Source: a virus
Lineage: Duplodnaviria > Heunggongvirae > Uroviricota > Caudoviricetes
Direction: 5' to 3' (one strand)
Length of the DNA stretch: 39,130 nt
IMG/VR virus record: IMGVR_UViG_2563366972_000008
Coordinates: 1 to 39,130 of that record
The notes under the pieces were generated by a model. The model saw only the letters and a program-made list of their open reading frames with translations. It did no database searches and was not told where the DNA came from. The position numbers were made by a program, and so were the translations under genes. Numbering within the stretch: position 1 is the first letter of the stretch; every line of letters starts with the position of its first letter. Positions 22,031-38,239 of the stretch are shown in pieces.

Positions 22031-22105
<75 letters not shown>

Positions 22106-22108
22106 ATA

Positions 22109-22184
<76 letters not shown>

Positions 22185-22186
22185 AC

Positions 22187-22263
22187 TGGACCGCCACCGG
22201 GGACTCGAACCTCGCACACTCAACTTAAAGGGTTGACGCTCTTTCCTGATGAGCTAGTGGCGG
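22187..22263 (-). tRNA. tRNA-like gene with noncanonical anticodon loop CCUUUAA (possibly Lys-UUU; C at position 33)
   Basis: Acceptor CCGCCAC/GTGGCGG, T-arm with TTCGAGT loop and encoded CCA; anticodon loop lacks the usual U33 and the T-stem has one mismatch. Confidence 0.55.
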
Positions 22264-22264
22264 T

Positions 22265-22340
22265 TGGTGGCCCTTGCTGGATTTGAACCAGCGACCTGGC
22301 GATTATGAGTCGCTCGCTCTCACCACTGAGCTAAAGGGCC
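22265..22340 (-). tRNA. tRNA with CAU anticodon, ileX/ileZ-like (Ile2 or Met)
   Basis: Acceptor GGCCCTT/AAGGGCC, anticodon loop CUCAUAA, TTCAAAT T-loop, CCA; resembles the Ile2 tRNA carried by lambdoid phages downstream of Q. Confidence 0.8.
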
Positions 22341-26732: not shown

Positions 26733-26885
26733 TTAACGTTTTTCAACTTCGTAGGCTAAATACGCTGAAAGCTCTGTGTTTCCCTGCCTGATGTGCAGCT
26801 CGCATAGCGAACCGCGAACCATCCAGACAAATATCAGAATGGTGATGCAAACCACCACCAGACAAAACACATAGCTCCTTCGCAT
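26733..26885 (-). CDS. hok: Hok/Gef-family type I toxin
   Basis: 50-aa ORF (absent from the ORF track) found by hand translation: MRRSYVFCLVVVCITILIFVWMVRGSLCELHIRQGNTELSAYLAYEVEKR; one TM helix plus the conserved LCE motif; AGGGGG RBS. Confidence 0.75.
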   Translation of the reverse strand: MRRSYVFCLVVVCITILIFVWMVRGSLCELHIRQGNTELSAYLAYEVEKR

Positions 26886-26943
26886 TACAGCCCCCTGTTA
26901 GTTGATTTCTTACTGTTAAGAGGCTAATCTTTATGTGTCGCAT
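26743..26943 (-). CDS. mok: mok-like overlapping reading frame
   Basis: 66-aa ORF overlapping hok in another frame and starting about 60 nt upstream, as in hok/mok/sok loci. Confidence 0.45.
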   Translation of the reverse strand: MRHIKISLLTVRNQLTGGCNAKELCVLSGGGLHHHSDICLDGSRFAMRAAHQAGKHRAFSVFSLRS

Positions 26944-27176
26944 ACAGAATGCCTCAGATTAATGTTAAGCGTCTTGCCGGACGCGTAATGTTAACTGGGG
27001 CTTTTCTCTATCTGCCGTTGGTGTTCATGCCCGAGGCAGATAGCCTCAAGCACCCGCAGCAATTCTACTTAACTCTCCTTTTCCCGCAAACCGTTTTTAT
27101 CCCCAGCGGCAAATCGAATACACCACCAGCGCCACCGCCATCGCAATTCCTACCGTTGTGAATGCTTCAGGCCAAG

Positions 27177-30852: not shown

Positions 30853-31278
30853 TCAATGCACAACCACAATATTTCCCGCCGGGCCACCACGATTCATCTG
30901 GTTGAAACCAGCGATCGCCACTGCGACAAAATCATCAGCGTCTCTCACCAGTCGTTCCCGCGTCTCCACCAGCTCCCGAAAATAGGCTGAACTGTGGCTG
31001 CGCATTCGGGCCACCAGCAGAGGTGGCATTGCTTTTTCGATCGCTGGTAACAACGCCTGAATTTTTTTAACCGCATCAGGGGTGTCTTTATCCAGCCAAC
31101 GGAAAATTTTCTGGGTATTACGAGCCAGCGCTTCCGGATGGCTGTCGTCATATAGCTCCGGGAACGTCATACCCAGCTCAAAATAAGCCCGGGTTATTTC
31201 AGCTGCCGGAACTTTTTCACCGTCCGGATGCGCCCAGGCATTCATCGCCATACGGATGTGTTCATGCTTGATTTTCAT
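30853..31278 (-). CDS. CII-position regulatory protein (YdaT-like, putative)
   Basis: 141-aa ORF immediately downstream of and overlapping the cro-like gene, upstream of the replication genes. Confidence 0.5.
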   Translation of the reverse strand: MKIKHEHIRMAMNAWAHPDGEKVPAAEITRAYFELGMTFPELYDDSHPEALARNTQKIFRWLDKDTPDAVKKIQALLPAIEKAMPPLLVARMRSHSSAYFRELVETRERLVRDADDFVAVAIAGFNQMNRGGPAGNIVVVH

Positions 31279-31537
31279 GAATCAACTCCGGTGTATTTGG
31301 TGTGTTAGCCTTATCTCCAGCAGGCAACCCGTCAGTTGGATTCGGGTATAAATCTGGTCGCAATTCATGAGGAGTAACCCCAGTTGCAATATAAATTTGA
31401 CGAACCCGTTCCCCCGTCGGAACTCGACCATTGTATTCATTTGCCCATTTGTGTATTTGAGATGGCCAAGCCCCTATTGCACGCCCTAGCGGACGAATAC
31501 CACCAGCAATCTTTATTGCTTTGTCCAATGCTGTCAT
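31262..31537 (-). CDS. Cro-like HTH regulator (YdaS/Cro family)
   Basis: 91-aa ORF divergent from the repressor gene, with HTH-like segment and GGAGG RBS. Confidence 0.7.
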   Translation of the reverse strand: MTALDKAIKIAGGIRPLGRAIGAWPSQIHKWANEYNGRVPTGERVRQIYIATGVTPHELRPDLYPNPTDGLPAGDKANTPNTPELIHENQA

Positions 31538-31562
31538 ACAACCTCCAGTTCAACTAACCACA

Positions 31563-31634
31563 ACAATTGTTCACTTAAAACGAACATAAGTCAACACCTC
31601 GAGGAATTGTTAGTGTTCACTGAACGGTTATAAT
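31563..31634. promoter_or_regulatory. Immunity switch: two related operator-like sites overlapping divergent promoters
   Basis: Site A ACAATTGTTCACTTAAAACGAACA and site B GGAATTGTTAGTGTTCACTGAACGG share AATTGTT...GTTCAC; plus-strand TTGTTA-16-TATAAT ends 6 bp before the repressor ATG; minus-strand TTGACT -35 element. Confidence 0.5.
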
Positions 31635-31640
31635 TGCTAA

Positions 31641-32030
31641 ATGGACATGAGAAAAAAGCAATACGACACCCCGCTAGCAGAAAGGTTAGATGCGATCTCT
31701 CAACAGCATCATTTAAGTGGTTCAGATTTAGCGCGTATCGCTGGTGTAGGTCGTTCATCAGTCAACGCATGGAAAAAAAGAGGAACAATCAGTAAAGATT
31801 CCGCAGCCAAAATTGCAGAAGCCACAAACGTTTCCCTTTCTTGGCTACTGACAGGGAAAGAAGAGACAAATAGAGAAGCGCTTGATGATGACGAGAAGGC
31901 CCTGCTTGATGTTTACAGAAACCTGCCACCCGTAGAACGTAGAAATATGCTGGCAGCTTTTCAAATGCGACTTCAAAAACTGACCGAATTTTACTCAGAA
32001 TACGTCGACCCAATAACACGACAAAAATAA
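31641..32030 (+). CDS. HTH_XRE repressor (DicA/CI-like)
   Basis: 129-aa ORF with HTH (LSGSDLARIAGVGRSSVNAWKK), divergent from cro-like gene, heading the ydfABC-dicB-like operon. Confidence 0.75.
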   Translation: MDMRKKQYDTPLAERLDAISQQHHLSGSDLARIAGVGRSSVNAWKKRGTISKDSAAKIAEATNVSLSWLLTGKEETNREALDDDEKALLDVYRNLPPVERRNMLAAFQMRLQKLTEFYSEYVDPITRQK

Positions 32031-32198
32031 TTCTTTATTTTACAGAATCATACCGCCGCAAGGCGGTTTTTTTTACCTTTTACGTATTCATTATGTTGAC
32101 TTTTGTTCACCTAGAGAGAACAATGTATTCCATCAAAGCACAACGGTGCGACAGGTCTTAGTTCCGCTACCCCGGCGTTAAGGGGAAATGAGGTCAAC

Positions 32199-32354
32199 AT
32201 GGATACTATCGATCTTGGCAACAACGAATCTCTGGTATACAGCGTGTTTCCCAACCAGGACGGCACATTCACCGCGATGACGTATACCAAAAGCAAAACG
32301 TTTAAAACCGAATCTGGCGCGCGTCGCTGGCTGGAAAGAAATTCAGGTGAGTGA
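32199..32354 (+). CDS. ydfA: YdfA-like small protein
   Basis: 51-aa ORF with GAGG RBS, found by hand translation; same length and operon position as Qin ydfA. Confidence 0.55.
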   Translation: MDTIDLGNNESLVYSVFPNQDGTFTAMTYTKSKTFKTESGARRWLERNSGE

Positions 32355-36868: not shown

Positions 36869-37072
36869 ATGAGCAGCTTATTTTTAACCGAAGATGAATT
36901 GCTAATATTAACGGGCTGCAAATATGCAAGCCACCAGCGAAAATGGTTAATGGAAAACGGGCTTCCGTTCTATACCAATCGTAGTGGCAAACCGATTGTC
37001 AGCCGGGATCTATTTACCTGCAATAAAACTTTACCACCACGCGAGGTAGAGCCGAATTTTGGTGCGATCTGA
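36869..37072 (+). CDS. xis: Excisionase (Xis)
   Basis: 67-aa ORF immediately upstream of and overlapping the integrase start. Confidence 0.7.
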   Translation: MSSLFLTEDELLILTGCKYASHQRKWLMENGLPFYTNRSGKPIVSRDLFTCNKTLPPREVEPNFGAI

Positions 37073-38097
37073 TGGGAAGACGAAGGAAAAATCCTGAACA
37101 CGAAAAATTACCTCCAAATGTATACCCAAATAAATATAGTTATGTATGGAAACCAACATCCAGAGAATCTGTCACACTAACCGCCATCAAGGATGGTTTA
37201 GCTGCTTTATGGAAAAAGTATGAGGAAACTGTAAATAATCGCGATCGTGCAATGACATTCGGTCGCTTGTGGGAAAAATTCCTCGCCAGCGCCTATTACA
37301 GTGACCTTAGTCCAAGAACACAAAAAGATTATCTGCAACATCAAAAAAAGTTGCTTGCCGTATTCGGTAAGGTACCAGCGGATTCCATAAAACCAGAACA
37401 CATCCGTCGATACATGGACAAAAGAGGGGAGCAGAGTAAAACGCAAGCCAACCATGAAAAAAGCAGTATGTCCCGTGTTTACAGTTGGGGGTATGAGCGA
37501 GGGTACGTGAAGGCTAACCCATGTGCAGGTGTAAGTAAATTCAAGGCCAAAAACCGCGAACGATATGTAACCGACAAAGAATACCAGGCAGTATTAAGCG
37601 TTGCACCTCTTCCTGTTTTTATCGCAATGGAAATTGCCTATCTGTGTGCAGCGAGGGTTTCCGATGTGTTATCGCTGAAATGGGAACAGATTGGAAACGA
37701 CGGGATATTCATCCAGCAAGGGAAAACCGGAAAAAAACAGATAAAAGCATGGAGTCCACGATTACAGGCAGCGATCGAAAAAGCAAAACAGTTACCAAAA
37801 TCTGCCTATGTGATCAGCAATCAATACGGCAACCGATATATGTACAAAGGCTTTAACGAAATGTGGGTAGAAGCAAGAAATCGTGCTGGAAAAATTTCAG
37901 GTATTTTAACCGACTTCACCTTTCATGATCTGAAGGCGAAAGGAATTTCAGACTATGAAGGAAGCAGCCGGGATAAGCAACTTTTCTCTGGTCACAAAAC
38001 CGAAGGGCAAGTGCTAATCTATGACAGGAAGGTTAAAATTTCACCAACACTTAATGTCCCGTTACCTGAAAATATTCCAAGAAAATATTCCAAGTAA
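37072..38097 (+). CDS. int: Tyrosine integrase
   Basis: 341-aa ORF with tyrosine-recombinase C-terminal catalytic region, 52 bp from a tRNA gene. Confidence 0.9.
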   Translation: MGRRRKNPEHEKLPPNVYPNKYSYVWKPTSRESVTLTAIKDGLAALWKKYEETVNNRDRAMTFGRLWEKFLASAYYSDLSPRTQKDYLQHQKKLLAVFGKVPADSIKPEHIRRYMDKRGEQSKTQANHEKSSMSRVYSWGYERGYVKANPCAGVSKFKAKNRERYVTDKEYQAVLSVAPLPVFIAMEIAYLCAARVSDVLSLKWEQIGNDGIFIQQGKTGKKQIKAWSPRLQAAIEKAKQLPKSAYVISNQYGNRYMYKGFNEMWVEARNRAGKISGILTDFTFHDLKAKGISDYEGSSRDKQLFSGHKTEGQVLIYDRKVKISPTLNVPLPENIPRKYSK

Positions 38098-38149: not shown

Positions 38150-38239
38150 TGGCGGAGAGAGGGGGATTTGAACCCCCGGTGGAGTTGCCCCCACTCCGGT
38201 TTTCGAGACCGGTCCGTTCAGCCGCTCCGGCATCTCTCC
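38150..38239 (-). tRNA. serU: tRNA-Ser (anticodon CGA), serU-like; probable attachment site
   Basis: 90-nt cloverleaf with long variable arm, anticodon loop CUCGAAA, acceptor GGAGAGA/TCTCTCC, encoded CCA. Confidence 0.85.

Follow-up and report, generated by a model that had tools for sequence, protein, structure and literature searches.

The immunity region of prophage CP-933P of Escherichia coli O157:H7 has been studied by Jurenas et al. (2021; PMC8630535) and Prolic-Kalinsek et al. (2023; PMC9986795). For its repressor gene paaR2, 5' RACE placed the transcription start at the A of the ATG codon and protein sequencing gave MQKKE as the N-terminus, so the repressor mRNA is leaderless (PMC8630535). 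The strongest promoter of racR likewise yields a leaderless transcript (PMC9638921). CP-933P YdaT activates the P_RE933P promoter and binds the sequence TTGATT-N6-AATCAA (PMC8630535, PMC9986795). Repression by DicA, which has no cleavage site, is lifted by an antirepressor (PMC10448788).

The DNA analysed in this work (the window, 39,130 bp) is a complete lambdoid prophage of E. coli that extends from tail genes through to an integrase adjoining a tRNA. Tail, head, terminase, and lysis genes lie on its minus strand, and the window also carries four tRNAs, a sok RNA, and an 823-aa ORF of exonuclease size. A gap of 103 bp (31538-31640) separates the ATG of a YdaS/Cro-like gene (31537, minus strand) from the ATG of a repressor gene (31641, plus strand), exactly as given in the first-pass annotation of this DNA, which had called the interval a compact immunity switch; Pfam bears this out in identifying a CI-type repressor (Phage_CI_repr, 48 bits) on one side and a Cro-like gene (YdaS, 39 bits) on the other. 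We regard it as probable, with good confidence, that this interval is the rightward operator region (the O_R analogue) of the lambdoid prophage, with the full switch logic that we infer below. A scan of the whole window against Rfam gave no match in or near the switch.

The repressor gene (31641-32030, plus strand) encodes a protein of 129 aa (MDMRKK...) with an HTH domain and a two-helix C-terminal domain. The Pfam assignment is to PF07022 (Phage_CI_repr/HTH_3, the 186 CI-type HTH), well over the gathering cutoff of 22 bits, and a profile of the repressor family matches 186 CI (2fjr) with E=2.9e-6; PDB sequence searches returned generic HTH domains only, the best of them being 186 CI. Its AlphaFold2 model (pLDDT 81) consists of a five-helix HTH and two C-terminal helices only, and the top PDB fold match of the model is full-length SinR (1b0n). 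The S24/peptidase domain is thus absent from the repressor, with no peptidase match in Pfam and nothing but the two C-terminal helices in the model, and a repressor of the lambda CI/LexA type (HTH plus self-cleaving S24 domain with an Ala-Gly site) is ruled out. The YdaS-family Cro-like gene (31262-31537, minus strand; 91 aa; Pfam cutoff 30 bits) has a canonical Shine-Dalgarno GGAGG four bases before its ATG (31542-31546, minus strand; string GGAGGTTGTATG, read from the sequence), in contrast with the repressor gene. It is followed by a YdaT-family gene, the CII analogue (30853-31278, minus strand; Pfam YdaT_toxin, 42 bits), and beyond ydaT lies a gene for a replication protein with a DnaT domain (Pfam). 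On the other side of the repressor gene, an intrinsic terminator (about 32052-32075, plus strand; ACCGCCGCAAGGCGGT followed by a T-run) is kept in relatives, and the first gene of the putative P_L operon encodes a DUF1391/YdfA homologue (32199-32354, plus strand; Pfam DUF1391, 94 bits). A close relative has a dicB gene downstream.

Three promoter-like units can be placed around the repressor gene. The P_R-like promoter found by consensus scan (31566-31594, minus strand) consists of a -35 TTGACT (31594-31589), a 17-bp spacer, and a -10 AACAAT (31571-31566), the latter with just four of the six consensus positions; it reads into the cro-like gene, with a predicted start at about 31559 and hence a leader of 22 nt. 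The minus-strand TTGACT had already been proposed as the -35 of the cro-side promoter, and it is both present and invariant in the eight loci compared below, among which neither the -35 (plus-strand GTCAACA) nor the -10 (ATTGTT) varies. The P_RM-like promoter (31607-31634, plus strand; consensus scan) has the sequence TTGTTA-16-TATAAT, matching 10 of 12 consensus positions. The third unit, P_L-like (32096-32124, plus strand; TTGACT-17-AACAAT), repeats the hexamers and the spacing of P_R and leads into the DUF1391 gene. About 82 bp separate the predicted start of P_R (about 31559) from that of P_RM (31641), and 12 bp separate their -35 hexamers. Promoter-like matches as such are not enriched in the region (3 versus 2.0 +/- 1.6 in shuffled sequences), so the case for the switch rests on other evidence. 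The predicted fold of the P_L leader RNA is not more stable than that of shuffled sequence.

The P_RM-like -10 ends 6 nt before the repressor ATG (TATAAT-tgctaa-ATG), and the predicted transcription start is the A of the ATG at 31641. From this plus-strand promoter the first-pass annotation had deduced a leaderless mRNA like that of lambda cI; the promoter is there as described, and at the level of sequence the deduction holds, being favoured by the -10 spacing, by the missing Shine-Dalgarno, and by the parallels with lambda and CP-933P. We compared the -10/ATG spacing in 24 loci (the window, four E. coli variants, 18 relatives of other genera, and CP-933P paaR2, whose 5' end was rebuilt from the published primers before CP-933P was located and the proteins were compared). 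In all 24, the distance from the end of the best -10-like hexamer to the repressor ATG is 6-8 nt (6 nt in 19 loci, 7 nt in four, 8 nt in one), and none of the 24 has a Shine-Dalgarno sequence downstream of the -10. As a background, 2.7% of all ATGs in the window have a -10-like hexamer at 6-7 nt. Lambda cI shows TAGATT-6-ATG (TAGATT-taacgt-ATG), and the paaR2 sequence shows GATAAT-6-ATG (GATAAT-taccac-ATG). In three relatives (L025-L027) the protein starts two codons later (MKKK...) and the -10 has shifted together with the ATG, which is expected if the AUG must occupy the 5' end of the transcript. A leaderless repressor mRNA from P_RM is therefore the best supported reading of these sequences, and it is well supported.

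It is improbable that the repressor mRNA carries a leader instead, either a short one before the second ATG (31647) or a long one from another main promoter, for example a YdaT-dependent P_RE-like promoter. Some near-identical relatives are annotated by PGAP with 127-aa products that begin at the third codon (L001 and L033), more distant homologues start at a methionine aligned with M3, and a YdaT box upstream means that a long-leader transcript probably exists under some conditions. On the other hand, for L032 and L034 PGAP itself chooses the first ATG (129 aa), no Shine-Dalgarno precedes either ATG, ATGGA(C/T)ATG is invariant in the eight loci, the -10 tracks the first ATG at 6-8 nt in every one of the 24 loci, and the analogues that have been tested by experiment, paaR2 and racR, are leaderless (PMC8630535, PMC9638921). 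Given the 6-nt distance between TATAAT and the ATG, the transcript is expected to begin with the A of the AUG and so to lack a leader; the probable repressor start is therefore the first ATG (31641) rather than the third codon. The PGAP products suggest that the start codon is annotated inconsistently in RefSeq, at 129 versus 127 aa among relatives. For the leaderless reading, the comparison adds support that such repressor mRNAs are a regular design of the Rac-, Qin-, and CP-933P-type prophage switches.

The YdaT box TTGATTTTCATGAATCAA (31268-31285) lies where ydaS stops and ydaT starts and is the only match to TTGATT-N6-AATCAA in the window. It is identical to the CP-933P box, and the homology with that prophage stops some 5 bp to the right of it. 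The box probably controls a P_RE-like promoter directed toward the repressor gene. Neither this box nor the second operator copy at P_L (32096-32124) had been noticed in the first-pass annotation.

The dyad TGTTC-N9-GAACA has exactly two matches in the 39,130 bp (31568-31586 and 32104-32122), both flanking the repressor gene; the number expected by chance is 0.05, and none of 100 shuffled sequences gave two. The first, O1 (TGTTCACTTAAAACGAACA, 31568-31586), fills the P_R spacer and overlaps the P_R -10, its centre being 64 bp upstream of the repressor ATG. The second, O_L (TGTTCACCTAGAGAGAACA, 32104-32122, plus strand), is enclosed by the P_L-like promoter past the repressor terminator, and this promoter-plus-dyad unit is 536 bp from O1. 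A further candidate operator next to P_RM (TGTTCACTGAACGGTTATA, 31614-31632) lies in the P_RM spacer and overlaps its -10, with its centre 18 bp upstream of the ATG. It matches 10 of the 14 dyad consensus positions, a score that no more than 20 of the window's roughly 39,100 19-mers reach or exceed, and it is unequal in its two halves: the left half (7/7) lies within GTGTTCACTG (31613-31622), while the right half (3/7) overlaps the -10. We concluded that the predicted operator is the 19-bp dyad TGTTCAC-N5-NNGAACA and not the short palindromes proposed earlier. We found no previous description of this dyad as a binding-site sequence.

Relatives were gathered through the repressor protein and through matches to E. 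coli genomes, and eight loci of the same repressor class (five E. coli variants, Lelliottia, Klebsiella aerogenes, and Salmonella; repressors 76-100% identical) were aligned for footprinting. Invariant in all eight are ATTGTTCAC, GAACA, GTCAACA (the P_R -35), the TTG of the P_RM -35, GTGTTCACTG, GGTTATAATTGC, and ATGGA(C/T)ATGAGAAAAAA. In the P_RM-like promoter, therefore, GGTTATAATTGC is invariant and TTG alone is kept of the -35; in O1 it is the central bases that vary, both half-sites being fixed. Besides the dyad centre, the variable positions are 31548-31562 and the 12-15 bp between the -35 elements, including a palindrome centred on CTCGAG. All four genera have the dyad centres at the same distances upstream of the ATG, 64 and 18 bp, and the P_L unit is as conserved as the O_R region. 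Three adjacent operators of the O_R1-3 kind were not found, the conserved positions being those at 64 and 18 bp only: about 42-43 bp upstream of the ATG the four genera have no conserved O_R2-like site (scores 7-9 of 14), so a lambda-style activation of P_RM by the repressor is not supported.

Three other elements of the region were considered. A third site at 31547-31565 (AGTTCAACTAACCACAACA, 9/14, 21 bp from O1) is found in the same place in Lelliottia and K. aerogenes and is a weak candidate only, being absent in Salmonella and eroded in other E. coli. The XhoI-containing palindrome CAACACCTCGAGGAATTG (31592-31609) is ruled out as an O_R2-like or Cro site since it is not conserved. The long imperfect inverted repeat 31548-31568/31605-31625 follows from the promoter and operator elements within it, and relatives do not keep it as a whole.

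Relatives whose repressors are 57-74% identical carry other words at the same O_R positions with the geometry kept (TGTTAGC...CTAACA, TGTTGAC...TCAAC, and TTGAGCC...GGCTCAA), and in two of them (L027 and L028) the dyad on the P_L side has changed to match the O_R dyad of its own locus. The HTH of the Cro-like protein switches class together with the operator (GGIRPLGRAIGAWPSQIHKW versus GNQRRLALALNMRPSSLNKW). The N-terminal region of the repressor also shifts with the operator class, more subtly than the Cro-like HTH, and only one or two residues of its recognition helix distinguish the TTCAC from the TTAGC operator class.

The last observation bears on whether both proteins use the same sites. 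If the TGTTCAC elements were bound by one regulator only (for example, the P_RM-proximal half-site by YdaS/Cro only) or served a host factor, the operators would not be common to the two proteins. Such an arrangement would suit the sharp difference of the Cro-like HTH between operator classes, compared with the barely altered recognition helix of the repressor, and also the P_RM-proximal site, which is without a good second half. We consider it unlikely: the same dyad is present at P_L, where a repressor site is expected, the N-terminal region of the repressor varies with the operator class as well, and the footprints of PaaR2 and YdaS in CP-933P fall on the same region, each of the two proteins repressing P_R, P_RM, and P_L. 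Operators shared by the repressor and the Cro-like protein remain our preferred reading, and within it the P_RM-proximal site, given its poor right half, may bind one of the two proteins only, or may be bound only cooperatively.

That the operators are two direct-repeat sites of the form AATTGTT...GTTCAC together with the palindromes AACAATTGTT and GTTCACTGAAC, as was first proposed, is very unlikely: all of these strings are present (AATTGTT at 31565 and 31605, TGTTCAC at 31568 and 31614, AACAATTGTT at 31562-31571, GTTCACTGAAC at 31615-31625) and the TGTTCAC(T/G)... pair is a direct repeat 46 bp apart, but the proposed sites are composites in which AATTGTT is the P_R -10 at 31565 and holds the P_RM -35 TTGTTA at 31605, a promoter element and not an operator since ATTGTT and TTG persist in relatives that carry other operator words. 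In addition, the Lelliottia, Klebsiella, and Salmonella relatives of the same repressor class have kept neither the outer bases of AACAATTGTT nor the TGAAC arm of GTTCACTGAAC, and the GAACA half at 31582-31586 and the O_L copy are left unexplained. The outer bases of AACAATTGTT are lost in two E. coli variants (EC12 and O157) as well as in the three other genera, and the TGAAC arm of GTTCACTGAAC is conserved within E. coli only; because of this poor conservation the two palindromes are probably incidental. What stands of the earlier proposal is its TGTTCAC part, which alone tracks repressor specificity.

From the sequence elements, their conservation and co-variation, and the family assignments, all of them observed directly, we infer the following binding, start sites, and regulatory logic around the dyad TGTTCAC-N5-NNGAACA. 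The repressor and the YdaS-family Cro-like protein would both recognise this dyad. Repressor bound at O1 and O_L would block the two strong early promoters: at O1 it would shut out RNA polymerase, so that ydaS, ydaT, and the replication genes stay off, and at O_L it would silence the early-left operon of the ydfA/dicB type. The weaker P_RM-proximal site would serve negative autoregulation at high repressor levels and the shut-off of repressor synthesis by the Cro-like protein. YdaT acting at the box at the ydaS/ydaT junction probably provides a CII-like second route to repressor synthesis. Since the repressor has no peptidase domain, self-cleavage dependent on RecA is unlikely and induction would probably need an antirepressor, as with DicA, whose architecture is the same. 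It may be speculated that repression of P_R relieves promoter competition and in this way replaces the missing activation of the O_R2 type. Taken jointly, these elements allow a wider and tentative reading, which we think possible but doubtful: that the family of short, non-cleavable prophage repressors with a Phage_CI_repr HTH and a SinR-like tail of two helices is obligatorily translated from leaderless mRNA and works a minimal switch (one dyad and one half-site at O_R, one dyad at O_L), in which cooperativity comes from looping between O_R and O_L. The start codon would then be held on the transcription start by selection, with two codons (MD) added here and not a leader, and looping over about 540 bp would proceed via the C-terminal helices, without an activating site of the O_R2 type.

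Among 5,426 complete E. coli genomes, 82 carry the immunity module (88-99.8% identity), and many of these are O157:H7 strains; a search of a phage collection gave no sequenced phage with this immunity region. The operator word and promoter layout given here are those of this one immunity type of E. coli.

Compared with lambda O_R, the locus has the same divergent repressor and cro genes (gap of 100 bp in lambda, 103 bp here), a -10 that ends 6 nt before the repressor ATG in both, operators at nearly the same distances from that ATG (O_R1 and O_R3 at 66 and 19 bp in lambda, 64 and 18 bp here), an operator copy at the leftward promoter past the repressor gene, and the same Shine-Dalgarno string GGAGGTTGTATG before cro. 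It differs from lambda in having no conserved O_R2-like middle site and a 19-bp dyad of different sequence, one operator at P_L instead of three, a 129-aa repressor with a helical C-terminal domain and without the RecA-cleavable S24 domain, and an unrelated protein, YdaT, in the role of CII.

With CP-933P the prophage shares the gene order, a YdaT that is 86% identical, the YdaT box, and P_L -35 and -10 hexamers that are the same as those of P_R; the gap is 97 bp there, also with the -10 at 6 nt before the ATG, and the leaderless repressor mRNA has been demonstrated by experiment in that prophage. The CP-933P operators, however, are GTTTAGTAA-type repeats, and here the repressor gene is not followed by the paaA2-parE2 toxin-antitoxin genes. 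The repressor is not a member of the PaaR2 family (BLASTP E=10), and the Cro-like protein has no detectable sequence similarity to CP-933P YdaS. As the homology ends just past the YdaT box and the repressor and Cro-like protein are unlike PaaR2 and YdaS, the immunity region is, judged by its sequence, a heteroimmune mosaic partner of the CP-933P region.

In the Qin prophage of E. coli K-12, DicA is a distant homologue of the repressor over both domains (25% identity over 110 aa, E=3e-6), a relation short of orthology, and this homology over the HTH and C-terminal domain, with an operon of the ydfA/dicB type downstream, is what places the repressor in the DicA family. The stretch from terminator through promoter and leader to ydfA is homologous in Qin. 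DicC, in contrast, is not similar to the Cro-like protein here, and by eye no clear -10 hexamer stands 6-7 nt ahead of the dicA ATG. It had been suggested that the sites be compared with the DicA/DicC and RacR operators. The Qin dyads TGTTAGTCATAACTAACA and TGTTAGTCATGGCTAATCT agree in the outer TGTT...AACA bases, but their inner bases are TTAG rather than TTCAC and their half-sites are one base closer; the RacR operators, (T/A)TAGGC-N3-GCCTA(T/A), agree in neither word nor spacing. The Cro-like protein is 30% identical to Rac YdaS (E=5e-6), and a YdaT gene follows in the same way. RacR, on the other hand, resembles the repressor only over 28 HTH residues and its operator word is absent from the gap, so membership in the RacR family is ruled out. 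The locus opens no new question: it is an ordinary switch of a well-understood type, its class of mechanism being familiar from lambda onwards and studied experimentally in related prophages. What is new in it is its heteroimmune specificity.

The RefSeq/PGAP annotation of the repressor is split among near-identical E. coli genomes (the related loci L001 and L032-L034), where the protein is given either as 129 aa, starting at the first ATG (31641), or as 127 aa, starting at the third codon (31647). The spacing between the -10 element and the ATG is conserved and favours 31641 over 31647 as the repressor start.

A weak additional dyad-like site, AGTTCAACTAACCACAACA (31547-31565), is found within the cro leader, 21 bp from the centre of the full operator dyad O1, and agrees with the operator consensus at 9 of the 14 scored positions. 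Its position is unchanged in Lelliottia and K. aerogenes; among the relatives compared, it is absent in Salmonella and eroded in other E. coli variants. In the Salmonella locus L023 (1891-2060) the dyad within the P_L-like promoter is TATTCGCCAATGACAAATA, which differs from that locus's own O_R dyad, TGTTAGC...CTAACA. The disagreement points to a recombination junction lying somewhere from O_R to P_L in L023, or to a mismatched hybrid module.

Elsewhere in the prophage, an Rfam match to the sok antitoxin RNA (26883-27055, minus strand; 93.7 bits) implies a putative hok/sok-type module. A cluster of four tRNA genes (22034-22340, minus strand) lies upstream of the late region, and an additional tRNA (38153-38239, minus strand), which adjoins the integrase ORF (37072-38097), is the probable attachment site.

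The leader that follows the P_L-like promoter and precedes the DUF1391 gene (32131-32198) is kept in all relatives and is also conserved 5' of ydfA in K-12 Qin. It contains two small hairpins, GCAC-AACG-GTGC and CCCC-GGCGTTAA-GGGG; its fold stability is not above that of shuffled sequence and Rfam gives no match to it. Qin carries ACAC...GTGT in place of GCAC...GTGC, possibly a compensatory change. Homology to prophage CP-933P stops approximately 5 bp to the right of the box for the CII analogue YdaT, and this junction, near 31290, is the immunity module's left mosaic boundary. The YdaT box itself, TTGATTTTCATGAATCAA (31268-31285), overlaps both the end of ydaS, at its stop codon, and the start of ydaT, and is the same sequence as the footprinted O_M of CP-933P.
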